The notes under the pieces: generated by a model | What the model saw: only the letters and a program-made list of their open reading frames with translations | What the model was told of the DNA's origin: nothing | The model's database searches: none | In this document: positions 54,513 through 61,635 of the stretch, in pieces | How positions within the stretch are numbered: the stretch's first letter is position 1 | How the letters are laid out: every line of letters begins with the position of its first letter | DNA from: an uncultured delta proteobacterium | GTDB lineage: Bacteria; Myxococcota_A; UBA9160; SMWR01 | Length of the DNA: 64,000 nucleotides | Assembly: GCA_963832165.1 (NCBI GenBank) | Contig: CAWHTE010000003.1 | Location: 735,342-799,341, forward strand | Reading direction: 5' to 3' | Made by a program: the position numbers and the translations under genes

Positions 54513-55022
54513 TCAGCACGCCCAGCTGATCAAGGTCAGCGCGCTAGCCATGCCTTCGACGAAGCGCCGTTGCTGGCCGCTGCCGGGGAAGGGAATCCGC
54601 TCATCGACGACATCGAGACCAGCCCTGCGCAGCGGTCCCTGGCACAGGTCACATACGTTGGCCTTGACGGTTATGAGGTGCTCGGGCTCGAGCGCCACTG
54701 CGCGCGCCACGAGGTCGGGCACGTACGAGTCGAGAGGCTCGTCGGCAACCTTGGGGTCGGTCTTGAGGTCGATTAGGAACACGCCGCAGTCGCGCAGACG
54801 CGTCAGCTGGGAGGCCTTGCCCGACCGCGACGGTCACCGGCTGAGCACCGTCTCGACGACGTAGCGGAACAGGCTGTCCTGCCCGCGCACGTCGTGGAAG
54901 TAGAAGTAGCGATCGAGGCTCGAGGGCGGCGCCTCGGCCACCAGCAGCAAGCGGACGTGTTCCGGCTGGTACCGCACGGCGGCTTGCTGTCGCCGGCGGC
55001 GGGCGTCTGCCTGAGGGCCCAT
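54513..55022 (-). CDS. Uracil-DNA-glycosylase-fold-like protein (frameshift near 54840)
   Basis: VRLLLVAEAPP...YFY, GVFLIDL, IPFPGSGQQ. Confidence 0.5.
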
Positions 55023-55100
55023 ACGACAAGGGTGTCAACGCGGGGCTAACCGCGTCGAGCCGAGCATCGCACCGCTCATTTCGCGGCATGAAAATGCTCC

Positions 55101-55297
55101 GTGGAGGCTCTGTCCGGGTCCGGCCGTAGCGTCGGGCGATCCGGGACAGGGGCTTCTGTTGGGAGAACGCAGGCGGGTAGGCCGGTTTGCGCGATGGGCT
55201 TCGAGCCCGGGCTTTTCGTTCGGCCGCCCCTGCGACTTGCCTGGATTGTGCTGCGAGCACGTATCGGTCTGTGTCGTTGTCCCGCTGGTTCTCCCGT
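55101..55297 (+). ncRNA. Candidate bridge RNA (seekRNA) of the IS110 element
   Basis: 5' hairpin 55103-55157. Stem gggagaac/gttctccc encloses two internal-loop arms whose loop sequences match the target and donor junctions. Confidence 0.7.
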
Positions 55298-55327
55298 TCG
55301 GTGTCAACCGCGTCGTGGGAGGTGAGG

Positions 55328-56574
55328 ATGGCGTTGGCGAGGTGGGTCGGTCGCGCGATCGGCCTGGATGTTCACCGTGACTTCTGCGTGGTCGCGATCT
55401 GTGAGGACGGCCAGGTCCGTTCCGGCGCTCGGGTGCCGAGCACGCCGGAGGGATTGACGTTGCTGGCGCAGAGCCTGGTGCAGTCGGATCGGGTGGCGTT
55501 GGAGGTGACGGGCAGCTGCTGGGAGGTCGCGCGGATCCTCGAGCCGCACGTCGACCGCGTGGTCGTGGTCAGCCCGGACGACACCGGCATCACGCAGGCG
55601 CGCGCGAAGACCGATCGGCTGGACGCGCGCACGTTGGCCCGGCTGCTGTGGTCGGGCGAGCTGGAGTCGGTGTGGATGCCCGACGAGCGCTGCCGCGTGT
55701 TGCGGCGCCGGCTGGCGCGCCGCGAGCAGCTGGTGCACTCGCGCTCGCGCGCGAAGAACGAGATCCACGCCGTGCTGCAGCGGCGCCTGCAGGGCAAGCC
55801 GCCGTGCTCGGACCTGTTCGGGGTCAAGGGCCGCCAGTGGCTGGCCGGCCTGGAGCTGCCGCTCGAGGAGCGCGAGTCCGTCGACGCGGGCATCCGTCAC
55901 ATCGACTTCCTCGACGCCGAGATCGCCGCGGTCGAGCGGCTGATCGCCCAGCAGGCGCTCGAGTGGCCCGAGATCCGCCGGCTGATGACCGTCCCCGGCG
56001 TCAACCTGATCTGCGCCGCGACCTTCATCGCCGCCGTCGGCGACCCGCGCCGCTTCTTGACCAGCCGCAAGCTGGTGGCCTACCTGGGCCTGGACCCGAA
56101 GGTCCGCCAGTCCGGGGACGCGCCGGCGCGCAGCGGCCGGATCAGCAAGCGCGGCTCGGCGGCCGCGCGCTGGGCGCTGGTCGAGGCCGCCTGGAGCGTC
56201 GTCCTGCAGCCCGGCCCGCTGCACGCCTTCTATGACCGCACGCGCGCCCGCCGCGGCCACGGCAAGGCGATCGTCGCGACCGCGCGCAAGCTGGCGATCC
56301 TGTTCTGGTGCATGCTCACCCGCGGCGAGGACTACGCCCACCAGCAGCCCTCGCTGACCAAGAAGAAGCTGCGCCGGCTCGAGATCACCGCCGGCGCGCC
56401 GAAGTACGCCAAGACCGGCCCGCGGGATCTGGAGCACCAACGCCGCGATCCGCCAGGCCGAGCGCGCAGCTCGCCGCGCAGGCCGAGGCCTCCTACAAGC
56501 GGCTGGTCACAGACCAGCAGGCCGCAGCCCCGGCGAGAAAGGTGGGCGCGAGCGCGACACCGGAGCGCGCATGA
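55328..56574 (+). CDS. IS110-family DEDD recombinase/transposase (frameshifts only in the C-terminal tail)
   Basis: GLDVH, ALEVTG, KTDRLDA (D-E-D-D), TVPGV, YLGLDP.VRQSG (catalytic Ser), ISKRG, ARKL. Confidence 0.92.
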
Positions 56575-56815
56575 AGTCAGGCCCTCAACGGGGCAAAGCC
56601 GCGCGGCAGACTCAAAGCTCCCGACGCCTGCGCTTCGCTACTCGGCGCGACGGCTTGCAGTGGCCCCACCGCGACGGCCTGAAGTGGCCCCACTTCGCGT
56701 TGGTTGATTTGTTGTCGTGATGTTGCCTGATGCGTGGTGTCGTGGTGCCGCGCGCCCGTCGTCGCGGAGCCGAGCCCGTAGGGCGAGGCGGAGCGGCGAG
56801 GGGCGCGCGGGCGCG

Positions 56816-57613
56816 TCATCGCGCGGGGGTCGCCTTCTTGCGGGTGAGGCCGTGGCGGAAGCGCCAGGACTCGGTGCCGGTGTCGATGATGTGCGCCTTG
56901 TGGGTGAGGCGGTCGACGACGGCCTTGGCCAGCCGGGGGTCGGGGAAGACCTTGGTCCACTCGCCGAACGGGCAGGTTGGTGGTGACGATCAGCGAGCCG
57001 CGTTCGTGGCGTTCGGAGAGGACCTGGAAGACGAGCTCGGCGGCGCCGTCGGGCAGCGCGAGGTAGCCGAGCTCGTCGAGGACGACGAGCTCGGTGCGGG
57101 CGTAGCGGCCGACGACGCGGGCGAGCTCGCGGCGGCTCTGGGCTTCTTGGAGCTCGTTGGCGAGGCCGGCGAGCGTGGTGAAGCGGACGCGTCGGCCCTG
57201 CTGGCAGGCGCAGACGGCCAGCGCGGTCGCGAGCAGCGTCTTGCCGGTGCCGGAGTCGCCGATGAGGATGACGCTCTCGCGGTCGTCGATCCAGGAGCCC
57301 TCGGCGAGCGCGGCGATCGTGGCTTGCGGGACGTTGGGGTTGTCGGCGAAGCGGAAGTCCTCGAGGCGCTTGATGGCCGGGAAGCGAGCGTCGATCAGGC
57401 GGCGGCGCTCGCGGCGCTCGGCGCGTTCTTGGTGTCTCGGCTTCCAGCAGCGCGGCGAGGTAGGCGACCGGGGTCTGCTGCTCGCGGGTCGCTTCGGCGG
57501 CGAGCGCGCGGAAGCGGCGGCGGACGGTCGGGAGCTTGAGCTCGATCGCGTGCGCCTCGATCAGCGCCTCCAGCGCGGCGGTCTTGGCGTTGGCGCGGTC
57601 ATGGCCGGTCATC
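56816..57613 (-). CDS. istB: IS21 helper ATPase (frameshifted)
   Basis: LKLPT, LEDFRF, GDSGTGKT Walker A, LDELGY Walker B, VTTN, DRLTH, SWR. Confidence 0.88.
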
Positions 57614-57852
57614 GTCGTCGCTCGCGCGGGCGCGGTGTTCGGCGAGCTCGGCGAGCGCCAGCAGCCGAACGCGAGGTCGCGCGCCGCGTCGCCGGTGAGG
57701 TCGGCCATGCGACGGGCTCGGAGCGCAGCCCGTCTCCGGGTCGCGAGAGCTCCAGACGCGGATGAGCTAGCCTGCTGGTGCCAGTCGATCAGCCTCGTGA
57801 CGCTGGGAATCCAGCGAAGGCGTTGGCGACGTTGAGCCAGCGGAATCGCCGC

Positions 57853-59396
57853 TCATCGCGCTGCCTCCGCGGTCGAGCAGCTGGTCGTAGCCGGCGAGTC
57901 GGGCGCCGGCCGGCCGTGCGCCGCCAGGCGCGGCTCGAGGCCGGTCAGCGGCGCCGGCGCCGGGCCGGCTGGTGCGGCGCGGCGCGCGAGCACCGCGACG
58001 GCGCGGCCGTCGTGCGCGCCGGCCGCCAGCGCGCCGCGGACCGCCAGCACGACCCGCGCGGGGCCGTGCTCGCGGCGCGAGCAGCAGCACGTCGACCATC
58101 TGCCGCGCGGCCTCCGAGCGCCCGTAGCGCGCGTCAGCGCGGCCCACAGCTCGTCGAACGCCGGCCGGCCAGGCGCCGCGCTCGCGCTCCTGGGCGAGCG
58201 CCAGCGACCGTCCAGGCCGCCGGGCTTGCGCTGCAGCAGCTCGAGGTAGTGATCAAGCTGCGCCGTGGCGCCGAACTGGCCGTGCAGCCGCTCGTGGCGC
58301 GCGACCACCGGCCACCGTGGCTGATCGTGATCTCCCGTGCGCCGATCCGCGCGCTCACCCTCAGCCCGGCGAGGCCGACCGGGACCGAGTAGCGGTTCTG
58401 GCGGACCGTGACCAGCGACTTGGCGTCGACGCGCGGCGCCGCGCCTCGGTCGCGTCGAACGGCTCGGCCGGCAGCGGCCGCAGCAGCGGCCGCTCGATCG
58501 CGCCAGCGCCTCGCCGACCGTCATCGCCGCGGCCGACGATCCGCCGGCGCAGGTCGGTCTCGCAGCCGGCAGCAGCATGGGCGTTGAGCTCAGCCAGGTC
58601 GGCGACCTCCGGGACCGGGACGAGGTGGTTGCGCCGGAAGCGCCCGACTTCGCCCTCGACGCCGCCCTTCTCGTGCGCGCCCGCTTGCCCGGCCGTCGTG
58701 AACTGCGACTCAAACAGGTAGTGCGAGCGCAGCGCGACGAACCGGTCGGTCTCGACCCGCCGGCGGCCCTTGAGGACCTTCTTGACCGCCGAGCCGAGGT
58801 TGTCGAAGCGGATCTCGGCGAACACGCCGCCGAACCACCCGAACGCCTCGACATGCGCCTCCAGGAACGCCTGCTGGGTCTCGCCCGGCGACGCCTGGCA
58901 GAACGCCGCGCCCGAGAACGACGCGCGCATCAAGAACAGAGCACCGTCGTCACTGCCCCGGCCAGCACGACCTGCGCCTCGCCCCAGTCGACCTCGCGCC
59001 TCAACACCCGGCGCGTGCACCTGCGGCACGAACACCTCCGCGACCGGCCAGCCCAGCGCCGCTTGCGCGCGCGCACGTAGTCGCGCACCGTCGTCTCGGC
59101 GACCTCGGCGCCGTGCTCGTCAACCAGCCGCCGCCAGATCCGCTTCGCCGTGTGGCGCTGCTTGCGCGGCGCCTCCCGATCGGCCTCAAGCCACCCGTCG
59201 ATCAGCGCGCGATACGCGCCCAGCTTCGGCGCCGGCCGACCCTGCGGCGCCGCTTGGCCGGCGGCAGCGGCGACGCCAACGCCTGCCGGACCGCCCGCCG
59301 ATGCACACCGTGCCGGCGCGCGAGCGCGCGGATCGACAGCCCCTCGCAATCGCGGTCGCGGCTGATCTGCTCGAACAGCTCCACCCTGGAACCCAT
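57853..59396 (-). CDS. istA: IS21 transposase (multiply frameshifted)
   Basis: [57 protein letters not shown]. Confidence 0.88.
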
Positions 59397-59836
59397 CCCC
59401 TCCGCGACCTCCCTCCGGACTCCGAAGAGCCCGAACCGTCCGGTCGCCATCGGACGGAGGTGGGGCCAGATCAAGCCGTCGCAGTGGGGCCAGTTCAAAC
59501 CGTCGTTCTCAGCTACGTCAGTCACCCGCGCCCACGCGACAATCTAACCCGCGACGGCCACACCGGCAAGCCGGTGCCGACCCGGCTCGCCGGAACACCC
59601 GCGAAACCATGCCCATGCACCCGGACGCACCCCATGCAGCCGGCACGAGGGGGAAGCGTGAGCCCGCCAACGCCTCTGAAAGCGCTCGAGCTCCGGAAGA
59701 ATCCGTGCAGCAAGCGCTTGACTTTCATCGGTCGCGCAAAGCAGTAGCGGGGACCCGGAGCCCGCGGCTGCCCAGGATGGTGTTCCTCACCGCCCGAAAC
59801 CGCGTGGAGAAGCCATCATGTGGCTTGTGCGCGGTG

Positions 59837-60493
59837 TCAGCGCTTGATGCGGTCCGTTTCGTGGGCCCACATGGCGATCTCGACGCGATTTCGGGCGCCG
59901 AGTTTGGCCATCAGGCTGGCGAGGTGAGTCTTGACGGTGCTGAGGCTGATGTGGAGCTCGTCGGCGATCTCGCTGTTCGTTCGACCACGGGCCACCGTGA
60001 GCAGGACTTCTTCTTCACGGCCCGTGAGCGGCTCGGTGGGCTGAGCCGGTGGGCGCCCGTTGCGGGCGTCGGAGAACGTGGCGAGCAGTCGGGCGGTGAC
60101 GCTTGGGGCGATGAGCGCATCACCGTTGGCGGCGGCGTGGATCGCCTGGATCAGGAGTGGGGGTCCGGCGTCCTTGAGCAGGAAGCCCCGGGCGCCGGCT
60201 TTGAGGGCGCCGTGGACGTACTCGTCGAGGTCGAAGGTGGTGATCACGATGACGGCGAGTGGGTCGTCGACATCGGGTCCGGCGAGTTGGCGGGTCGCCT
60301 CGATGCCGTCCGTGCCGGGCATGCGGATGTCGAACAGGCACACGTCGGGCCGCAGCTCGCGGGCGAGGGCCACCGCTGCGCGCCCGTCTGCGGCCTCGCC
60401 GACCACCTCGATGCCGGGCTGGGCGTCGAGGATCATCGTCAGCCCGGTGCGGACGAGTTCCTGATCGTCGGCGACGATCACGCGGATGGTCAC
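59837..60493 (-). CDS. NarL/LuxR-type response regulator
   Basis: ADDQ, DIRMP, TTFD, FLLK, LT.RE.EVL...G.TN.EIA.EL.IS..TVKTH. Confidence 0.93.
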   Translation of the reverse strand: MTIRVIVADDQELVRTGLTMILDAQPGIEVVGEAADGRAAVALARELRPDVCLFDIRMPGTDGIEATRQLAGPDVDDPLAVIVITTFDLDEYVHGALKAGARGFLLKDAGPPLLIQAIHAAANGDALIAPSVTARLLATFSDARNGRPPAQPTEPLTGREEEVLLTVARGRTNSEIADELHISLSTVKTHLASLMAKLGARNRVEIAMWAHETDRIKR

Positions 60494-61635
60494 GAGCCCG
60501 CGCCCGCCCGCGGCACCACCGCGTTGACAGTCCATCCCCTGCCGGGGCCCGGACCGGCCTCGAACGTGCCGCCGAGGAGCGCCGCCCGCTCGGCCATGCC
60601 GACGAGGCCGTAGCCGGATCGGCTCCCATCGGCTGAGCCCGCATCACCGTCGTCGCGGACGGTCAGCCGCACGCAGTCGTCCTCGCCGGCGACCTGGACG
60701 TCGATGCGGGTCGCGTGGCGGGCGTGCTGCGTCGCGTTGGTGATCGCCTCCTGTGCGAGGCGATACATCGCGGCCCCGACCGACGGCCTGAGCGCATCGA
60801 ACTCGCCCGAGAGCTCCACATCGACACGCGGCCCGTGCGCAGCGTCGCGGGCGAGCCGCTCGATGTCGGCCACGCCCCGTTGGGGCGCGCGGTCGGGCTC
60901 GTCGCCGTCGCGCAGTACGCCGACCATGGTGCGCATCTCGGCGAGCGTGCGCGAGGCCGCCTCCTCGATGACCTCGAGGGCGCGCACGGCGGCGTCAGGG
61001 CGGCCGGCCGCGACGGTCCGCCCGGCCTGGGCCTGGATCGCGATGGCGGAGACATGGTGGGCGACCGTGTCGTGCAGCTCGCGCGCCAGCTGCTGGCGCT
61101 CCCGGAGCTTGACCTGATCGATCTCGCGGAGCCGGGAGCTCACCCGGTAGCGCACGGACGCGCCGAGCGCCGCGGGGAACAGCAGGAACACGGTCCCGAC
61201 CACCGCATCGACCACACCGGTGGCGTCGGCCGCGATGCCGATGACGCAGGCGGCCAGGATGATCGCCAGCCCGATCACGGCCTCGCGACCGGCCCCCCAG
61301 CGGAAGAGCGCGTAGGGGAGCAGCAGCACGCAGATGCTGGTGTACAGCCCCACCGGCTCGTCGCCCCAGAGGAGCTCCGCGACGGCGGCAGCGCTGATGG
61401 AGCCGAACGCGACGGCGACCGCGAGGAGCGGGCGCGTCCGCCGCCACAACAGCGTCGAGATCGCCACCAGGGCGATCACGATCGCGACCGCCGGCCAGGC
61501 CAGATCCTCGCGGAGCAGGCCTTCGAGCACCGCGGTTGGCACCAGCACCGCGACGAGCAGCCAGTCCCGCCACACCCGGGCGGGCGGCGCCGGGGCTCGG
61601 GGCTCTGCCCACAGCGACCGGGCGGCGGTCCTCAT
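60490..61635 (-). CDS. HisKA_3 membrane sensor histidine kinase
   Basis: TM helices, ARELHDTVAHH, QEAITN, DDG, GYGLVGMAER. Confidence 0.92.
   Translation of the reverse strand: MRTAARSLWAEPRAPAPPARVWRDWLLVAVLVPTAVLEGLLREDLAWPAVAIVIALVAISTLLWRRTRPLLAVAVAFGSISAAAVAELLWGDEPVGLYTSICVLLLPYALFRWGAGREAVIGLAIILAACVIGIAADATGVVDAVVGTVFLLFPAALGASVRYRVSSRLREIDQVKLRERQQLARELHDTVAHHVSAIAIQAQAGRTVAAGRPDAAVRALEVIEEAASRTLAEMRTMVGVLRDGDEPDRAPQRGVADIERLARDAAHGPRVDVELSGEFDALRPSVGAAMYRLAQEAITNATQHARHATRIDVQVAGEDDCVRLTVRDDGDAGSADGSRSGYGLVGMAERAALLGGTFEAGPGPGRGWTVNAVVPRAGAGS

Follow-up and report, generated by a model that had tools for sequence, protein, structure and literature searches.

Results

An insertion sequence of the IS110 family and its ends

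In the 64,000-nt stretch of DNA from an uncultured delta proteobacterium analyzed here (contig CAWHTE010000003.1; "the window", to whose positions all coordinates refer), our analyses point, with a probability of roughly 85%, to an IS110-family insertion sequence at 55081–59733 that carries the gene of a DEDD/Ser recombinase and, within its left non-coding end and in the same orientation, that of a roughly 195-nt bridge RNA. A first-pass annotation made from the letters of the window had named this RNA and four guide segments in it. In related elements, up to 69 copies at distinct sites, the left-end RNA covaries with the junctions of the insertion, and this holds for three of these four guides.

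The recombinase contains a RuvC-like N-terminal DEDD domain (Pfam DEDD_Tnp_IS110, PF01548, residues 11–152, 5.2e-19) and a Tnp domain with the catalytic serine (Pfam Transposase_20, PF02371, residues 217–302, 4.9e-25). In an alignment including ISCro4, its residues D14, E59, D96, D99 and S262 align to D11, E60, D102, D105 and S241 of IS621, for which the catalytic residue numbers were taken from PMC11208158. The intact relative L014 scores 241.9 bits with the NCBIfam model NF033542, "IS110 family RNA-guided transposase" (cut-off 140).

Relatives were collected by scanning one genome per species, which gave 348, and the best 80 were kept (70–96% protein identity); nearly all of these stem from metagenome-assembled genomes of Solirubrobacterales. 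A kinship-based search yielded proteins of 35–43% identity only, in 5 of 60 genomes. BLAST matched the left end in 74 of the related loci, and the RNA alignment comprises 60 distinct left ends, i.e., 75 minus 9 exact duplicates and 6 partial or interrupted ones. The source genome is an incomplete assembly of 11 contigs in which a genome search found the element as a single copy and no further ones, and the element ends were hence set from the loci of the relatives.

At the left junction of the window copy, ctcatt is followed by TCGCG and gcatgaaa, and at the right junction tttcatcgg is followed by TCGCG and caaagc, with TCG at 55081–55083 and 59732–59734, respectively. Homology starts at window position 55081 in most of the 74 left-end loci, the partial or interrupted ones differing, and stops at the right end after ...CATCGGTCG. 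In general, the relatives show flank, TCG, N and GGCATGAAA on the left and CTTGACTTTCATCGG, TCG and flank on the right. TC(G) was found at both junctions in 61 distinct insertion sites, as befits site-specific insertion at a short core by an element that lacks long terminal inverted repeats. The element ends of the first-pass annotation match these junction tables; the core TCGCG that it had proposed is too long. One relative, L022, has CATCGG-TC-CGCGCAAAC at the right junction and TCG at the left one, and L044 has TCC on both sides. These two loci place the crossover in TC, which thus probably is the core. The G after TC is common to nearly all donors and targets, and the last CG of TCGCG is a coincidence of the window copy.

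Inside the ends lies a short subterminal inverted repeat, of 6 bp or of 8 bp with one mismatch, in a left end in which GCATGA.A is invariant in 60 sequences. Outside this repeat, provided that TC is counted with the left end, the left terminal extension measures 7 bp and the right one 3 bp. Two promoter-like hexamers, GAAA(A/C)T at the left end and TTGA(C/T)T at the right end, are conserved among the relatives. In the downstream non-coding part of the element (approximately 290 bp without the nested element listed in Table 1), no guide matches were present among those looked for. The element sits in intergenic space past the stop codon of a response regulator gene on the minus strand (59837–60535; Response_reg and GerE, a LuxR-type DNA-binding domain), which lies to the right of the insertion.

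Table 1. Features of the element in the window. Pairing percentages and pair counts refer to the aligned left ends.
Feature	Position	Strand	Remarks
Left core copy TC	55081..55082	+	G 55083 near-universal; C 55084 is the variable donor position N
Left subterminal inverted repeat ATGAAA	55088..55093		partner TTTCAT 59723-59728
-10-like hexamer GAAAAT	55090..55095	+	17 bp past right-end -35 TTGACT on the circle junction
Bridge RNA gene	55101..55297	+	putative start ~7 nt past -10; end set after outer stem
5' stem-loop	55103..55156	+	helices 1-4 paired 55-83%; compensatory changes in 6 pairs; loose alignment
Outer stem	55161..55168 GGGAGAAC / 55288-55295 GTTCTCCC	+	94.6% of cells paired
Closing stem, target-binding loop	55169..55185 / 55221-55233	+	93.7% paired; one pair G-C in 54, C-G in 6
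5' target guide TTTGCGCGA	55186..55194	+	complement of top strand, core + right flank 59732-59740, 9/9
Inner hairpin, target-binding loop, TGGGCT-TCG-AGCCCG	55195..55209	+	100% of cells paired, 60 sequences
3' target guide CTTTTCG	55212..55218	+	same sense as left flank + core, pairing with bottom strand
5' donor guide (probable) CTTGCCTGGA	55236..55245	+	complement of top strand, core + left-end start TCGNGGCATG
Inner hairpin, donor-binding loop, GTGCT-GCG-AGCAC	55248..55260	+	one pair A-U 34, U-A 16, C-G 9 of 60
3' donor guide ATCGGTC	55263..55269	+	same sense as right end + core 59727-59733
Recombinase gene	55328..56574	+	414 aa in relatives; ATG 55328; ancestral stop 56572-56574
Right end, first part	56575..56641	+	joined directly to 59512 ff. 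in relatives; likewise in contigs of 4 runs
Nested decayed IS21-family element	56642..59511	-	outside the bridge system; target duplication GCTAC 56637-56641 and 59512-59516
Right end, second part	59517..59731	+	-35 TTGACT (59718-59723), TTTCAT (59723-59728), terminal CGG
Right core copy TC	59732..59733	+	followed by right flank of target GCGCAAAG

A conserved RNA scaffold in the left end

The alignment of the 60 left ends consists of long invariant blocks interrupted by few short variable stretches. The predicted RNA starts with a 5' stem-loop, followed by an outer stem around two loops; in either loop, a closing stem surrounds a small hairpin that has one guide on its 5' side and another on its 3' side. 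Over the whole structure, 88.9% of cells are paired, compared with 37–48% when pairing partners are slid, a control that favors the structure since it was derived from one of the aligned sequences. Compensatory cells number 58 against 19.9 in shuffled alignments, and none of 500 shuffles reaches 58. The first pair of the outer stem, for example, has changed on both sides in 6 sequences. Both RNAalifold and the structure written from the window sequence give these stems and hairpins, with a short closing stem around the inner hairpin in loop 2. Conserved G-U pairs, one of them U-G in 60 of 60 sequences, are compatible with the plus strand only. The long non-coding end thus holds a structured non-coding RNA that is conserved in the relatives, and the 5' hairpin, the outer stem with two arms and the gggct-tcg-agccc hairpin that had been folded by eye in the window are all present in the alignment. 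An argument from folding energy, in contrast, fails: the minimum-free-energy fold is no better than that of shuffled sequences (z = -0.29), and for this reason the structure rests on comparison and not on energy. In two relatives, L030 and L039, the bridge RNA gene is split by an insertion of about 2 kb at the equivalent of 55181/55182, just 5' of the target guide.

The same scaffold extends beyond close relatives. A profile of the alignment searched with nhmmer found it upstream of recombinases of 39–52% identity in seven of eight more distant loci (E 1e-29 to 3e-10), missing L010. Some of these matches come from plasmids of Rhodococcus, Arthrobacter and Bradyrhizobium, others from four of five genomes of the same order. 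In two Bradyrhizobium copies, the core is GT and the 3' guides agree in sense with left flank and right end; of their 5' target guide, only 5 of 10 positions fit.

Target guides covary with the flanks of the insertions

The 5' target guide TTTGCGCGA is the exact reverse complement of 59732–59740, as had been read in the first-pass annotation. When 55086–55327 was shuffled 100,000 times, this 9-mer arose in 138 cases, the 7-mer ATCGGTC (55263–55269) in 1,588 and both together in 2. Among the relatives, the 5' target guide falls into 10 classes over 61 loci at 61 distinct sites. Five multi-member classes predict ATC, TCC, CGC, CCA/G and CCG after TCG, and the flank consensus agrees in all five. 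At flank positions +1, +2 and +3, the guide matches in 57, 57 and 55 of the 61 loci. On average, 4.74 of 7 positions form Watson-Crick pairs, compared with 2.74 when guides are set against flanks from other classes. Once G-U pairs are allowed, 6 or 7 of 7 positions pair in 45 of 61 loci, and none of 10,000 permutations attains the observed means. Single loci illustrate this further: L015 combines the guide AATGCGCGA with the flank CGCATTG, L034 has an additional TA in guide and flank alike, and in L044 the guide and both junctions share an altered core base.

The 3' target guide matches the left flank of the window copy at 6 of 7 positions, and this reading of the first-pass annotation is borne out by covariation in 69 loci. 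Its mean match is 3.22 of 6 positions, compared with 2.25 for permuted flanks, and again none of 10,000 permutations reaches the observed mean. Positions -1, -2 and -3 match in 42, 46 and 47 of 69 loci, respectively, whereas permuted flanks give 23–31. Examples are TAATCG with the flank CTAA,TCG and GAGATTCG with GAGAT,TCG. The loop hence carries one guide for each target strand, both covarying with the target and overlapping each other at the core. Identical loops kept at different targets would have spoken against guiding; instead, related elements at different targets have loops that differ and fit their own flanks.

Donor guides and the joined ends

The second loop reads the joined ends of the element with one well-supported and one probable guide. 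The 3' donor guide ATCGGTC, identical to 59727–59733 as the first-pass annotation had it, equals the right end in 58 of 58 loci, and in 2 of 2 further loci a guide ATCCGTC is found together with a right end ATCCGTC, so that all 60 of 60 agree; L087 is a third locus with ATCCGTC in guide and right end. For the 5' donor guide, the segment 55236–55245 probably is the better candidate than 55248–55256, the one chosen in the first-pass annotation. CTTGCCTGGA forms 6–8 Watson-Crick pairs of 10 with TCGNGGCATG in 69 loci, and its changes follow the donor variants A, G and T at N as well as the change of GG to AG (AAG). A second loop that reads the joined ends is in this sense supported by covariation for the 3' guide and partially for the 5' guide.

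Other candidates fared less well. GTGCTGCGA at 55248–55256 does not follow the donor; it forms the 5' arm and the loop of the covarying GTGCT/AGCAC hairpin, the pair counts of which are given in Table 1. The alternative guide gtcg at 55273–55276 lies within an invariant TGTCG and is without support. Handshake guides in the style of IS621 were rejected as well, the bases past the 3' guides fitting the donor in one lineage only when inspected by eye.

Variation at the donor ends includes two further observations. The base N of TCGN (window 55084, compared with 59735) equals the base after the target TCG in the A, C and T lineages and not in the G lineage. In the C lineage, the donor guide does not follow N. 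The right end of L024, CATCGGTC-ATCGGTCG-ATCAAT, contains a tandem duplication of the 7 bases read by the 3' donor guide.

The target site

The consensus of 57 sites, gggGCTGCCGCttt, TCG, tCCaAAGCGGnAGc, forms an 11-bp palindrome around a loop that contains the insertion point. The favored target of the family is the loop of a GC-rich palindrome. In the source genome of the window, there is no occurrence of the 13-mer that the guides predict, and the 9-mer occurs 26 times, with about 30 expected. The palindrome GCTGCCGCTTT-TCGNCC-AAAGCGGCAGC is conserved beyond the bases read by the guides, and the window site (55067–55080 and 59735–59748) fits it loosely. The stem-loop target described for ISPpu10 (10.64898/2026.03.19.712850) is comparable in that a GC-rich palindrome, with conservation exceeding what the guides read, surrounds the site; in contrast to ISPpu10, the insertion point here has the stem on either side. 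This conservation may reflect a target structure that adds specificity, or a repeat family. ISPa11 of the IS1111 type is likewise described as targeting palindromic sites, namely REP sequences (PMC11187229).

Some of the relatives have themselves become targets. In 7 of 75 related copies (L016, L020, L021, L033, L043, L047 and L085; e.g., L021:4023–5432), a second IS110-family element of 1.34–1.41 kb with a recombinase of 386 aa is inserted in the right end at exactly the same point, CTTGACTTTC^ATCGGTCG. In its left end, 9 nt repeat the left flank (TTGACTTTC) and 6–8 nt are complementary to the right flank; the guide order is ambiguous. It looks like an insertion sequence homing to the end of another.

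State of the window copy

The window copy has 1-nt insertions at about 56415–56418 and at 56466–56467, and the frame is lost after approximately residue 363 of 414. These frameshifts replace the last 50 or so residues and carry the frame past the ancestral stop codon. The inserted letters are not in contigs of relatives; they may be real mutations or assembly errors. In addition, the right end is interrupted by a 2.9-kb element. The relatives run from 56641 to 59512 uninterrupted, with five bases overlapping, and contigs of four public runs, which derive from intact copies elsewhere, pass straight over the site; 56642–59511 is therefore an insertion flanked by a GCTAC duplication. Pfam fragments in it comprise IstB_IS21 (56819–56989), Mu-transpos_C_2, the C-terminal domain of IstA (58137–58520), and a weak, sub-threshold HTH match (59205–59543), all on the minus strand and in different frames. 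Motifs resembling GTGGCCCCAC recur at the ends of this insertion. Because of the two frameshifts and the nested insertion sequence, the window copy probably is dead. Of the decodable recombinase with intact catalytic residues that had been proposed for this locus, the five residues hence stand, whereas the copy as a whole probably does not work.

Discussion

Proposed role of the RNA

By analogy to IS621, we propose that the left-end RNA would be transcribed, bound by the recombinase and needed for recombination. A promoter would form only when the ends are joined, with TTGACT and GAAAAT 17 bp apart and reading into the RNA. The first loop reads the target, its 3' guide of about 5–7 nt pairing with the bottom strand, and the second loop does likewise for the ends as joined in the excised circle. 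With one recombinase dimer bound to each loop, target and donor would be paired, and strands would be exchanged at the short core, probably TC.

Guide polarity in comparison with known systems

The RNA lies upstream of the gene, ending at 55297 with the gene starting at 55328, as is typical of the IS110 type. In both of its loops, the complement of the top strand precedes the segment matching the bottom strand, which by sequence is the order of IS1111-type seekRNAs and opposite to that of IS621 and ISEc21. Because the order is opposite in both loops, the recombination site is reversed relative to the genes of RNA and recombinase. This polarity went unnoticed in the first-pass annotation, which read three of the four guides correctly. 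When target and donor are both turned round, exactly the IS621 pattern results, with 7 + 2 nt in the 5' target guide and the same products. The mechanism thus may equal that of IS621, with the site inverted relative to the genes.

As far as these systems are laid out in the cited passages, likeness to IS621, ISCro4 and IS622 (PMC11208160, PMC11208158) is otherwise close. It comprises the DEDD/Ser recombinase with five catalytic residues, an RNA in the left end upstream of the gene with 5' stem-loop, target loop and donor loop, and in each loop a long 5' guide (9–10 nt) and a short 3' guide overlapping on the core; a promoter split over the circle junction is also described (PMC11208160). Guide polarity in IS621, however, is the reverse of that found here, as stated in PMC11208160, PMC11208158 and a later preprint; there, the left target becomes linked to the RNA-encoding left end. 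Furthermore, the core is CT in IS621 and probably TC here, the outer stem encloses both loops here, and the recombinases, 414 aa here and 326 aa in IS621, are weakly similar (E 4e-13).

The IS1111 types ISEc11, ISPa11, ISKpn4 and ISPst6, as described in PMC11187229, share with our element the guide order, with the top-strand complement first, and perhaps the terminal structure: here, too, there is a subterminal inverted repeat, and the extensions would have the 7 and 3 bp given for IS1111 elements, provided that TC belongs to the left end. They differ in a non-coding region downstream of the gene, whereas here the guide-bearing structured region is upstream, and in a repeat of usually 11–13 bp as opposed to 6–8 bp. 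ISEc21, of the IS110 type, has an upstream non-coding region and an RNA matching both target strands, as here, but the top-strand match lies 3' of the bottom-strand match and not 5' of it. The same source mentions ISMtsp17 as an IS1111 relative with an upstream non-coding region and considers further families possible; by description, which is the sole basis of this comparison, it shares IS1111-like features and the position of the region with our element. In the literature texts searched, we found no account of an upstream RNA combined with top-strand-first order; figures and supplements (Durrant Extended Data Fig. 10c, Siddiquee Supplementary Fig. 2 and Fig. S12 of 10.64898/2026.10.21.760802) lay outside this search. 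The last of these works, a 2026 preprint, is described as presenting 86 bridge-RNA models over 32,190 loci, and its model set may well include this arrangement.

The window's own genome holds five further IS110-family genes of three kinds, L098/L099 (two copies), L100 and L101/L102 (two copies). In the donor loop of L098/L099, read by eye, GGATC(C)G in right-end sense stands 5' of ACAAGG(T)CG, the left-end complement, which seemingly is the IS621 order; a scripted check gave partial support. Both polarities may thus occur in one genome.

Alternative readings

Several observations weigh against a bridge RNA read in the way proposed here. The 5' donor guide has 2–4 mismatches of 10 everywhere, N is mismatched in 17 of 69 loci including the window lineage, and RNAalifold pairs part of 55236–55245 with the 3' donor guide. 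L048 and L039 misfit their 5' target guide, the match of the 3' target guide is moderate (mean 3.2 of 6), the core TC is supported by two informative loci, L022 and L044, and the promoter was read by eye with its 17-bp spacing hand-counted on the joined ends. Most scaffold pairs are invariant, which leaves covariation thin outside a few pairs. The single-sequence fold (z = -0.29) is uninformative in DNA of about 70% G+C, and a scan of 54800–60000 against Rfam 15 gave no match at E up to 1. Contigs from RNA libraries (X15, X16) cover 55081–55399 with 97–98% identity over the RNA region; they may derive from DNA and reveal neither strand nor ends, and since DNA runs peak over the same conserved bins, depth is uninformative. 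One might take the left end for an ordinary 5' untranslated leader that controls recombinase expression, with flank matches arising by chance or from the palindromic target. The unremarkable folding energy would fit this, a palindromic consensus could yield mirror matches, and expression-modulating small RNAs are mentioned as proposed for ISPpu9 (PMC11208160). Yet the tracked bases after TCG (ATC, CGC, TCC, CCG and CCA) belong to the loop of the palindrome, which is asymmetric, guides vary in step with their flanks at 61–69 independent sites with no permutation reaching the match, and the donor guide follows a change in the right end, so that we regard a mere leader as very improbable. Equally improbable is that the true order is that of IS621 and the reversal stems from a wrong strand or wrong ends. 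Nothing positive speaks for it, although our reversal rests on published definitions. Recombinase frame and conserved G-U pairs put both genes on the plus strand, the ends are fixed by 61 sites, and in an RNA on the opposite strand each guide would begin with the core, an arrangement unlike either of the known orders. Moreover, L098/L099 seemingly show the IS621 order by eye, and the method may thus detect both.

With a bridge RNA of reversed order as the preferred reading, the classification of the element has to be considered. It could simply be an IS1111-family member with an upstream non-coding region, a recorded exception and neither a third arrangement nor an intermediate. Guide order, the repeat ATGAAA/TTTCAT with 7- and 3-bp extensions (TC counted left) and the precedent of ISMtsp17 are in agreement with this, as judged from the descriptions in PMC11187229. 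On the other hand, the repeat is 6 bp (8 bp with one mismatch) instead of the usual 11–13 bp. The plasmid annotations name the recombinases simply as IS110 family transposase, and NCBIfam covers the family with a single general model. We consider such membership quite possible, if short of probable. The idea that this widespread family represents a third bridge arrangement linking both types is tentative and, in our view, rather unlikely. Copies come from Solirubrobacterales and, judged by their scaffold, from plasmids of Rhodococcus, Arthrobacter and Bradyrhizobium. The idea builds on an upstream RNA as in the IS110 type together with polarity, short repeat and 7/3-bp extensions as in the IS1111 type. 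As to the window copy, which we read as dead, it might still be functional if its insertions were assembly errors of a metagenome-assembled genome and the IS21-family element were merely carried along in the right end. RNA scaffold, both ends and catalytic residues are intact, the nested insertion lies in non-coding DNA between gene and right end, and the genome is incomplete with its 11 contigs. Against this stand three 1-nt insertions within 170 bases relative to all close relatives, a nested element that is itself in fragments of different frames and thus appears old, and a genome with one copy and no repeated target; a working copy hence seems improbable.

Implications

This IS110-family bridge RNA is of a known kind, and the variation is a modest one, namely a reversed guide order combined with an upstream RNA. 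The family adds nothing new in principle. It provides, however, a clean natural data set with 10 guide classes over at least 61 independent insertions, in which an RNA upstream of the gene goes together with a site polarity opposite to that of IS621. Gene orientation and site polarity are thus separable, and guide-finding rules derived from IS621 misread such elements, as happened with the donor guide of the first-pass annotation. Because an upstream RNA is combined with IS1111 order, the division into IS110 and IS1111 types by position of the non-coding region and guide order is incomplete. We know of no guide RNAs other than bridge and seekRNAs that program a recombinase for both of its DNA partners. 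These RNAs are under development as genome-writing tools.

The palindromic target would be a second natural case, after ISPpu10 as described, in which target structure may add specificity. If the family indeed were a third arrangement, the IS1111 type and this type would be circular permutations with the same RNA-gene module and a moved junction, and an inversion of the junction would set the IS621 type apart. In that case, cutting and exchange would begin with the strand antisense to the genes, which would matter under single-strand copy-out transposition as proposed for CazIS110-1 (10.1101/2025.10.25.684509, according to the passages available). Whatever the state of the window copy, the family is mobile in Solirubrobacterales, now or recently.

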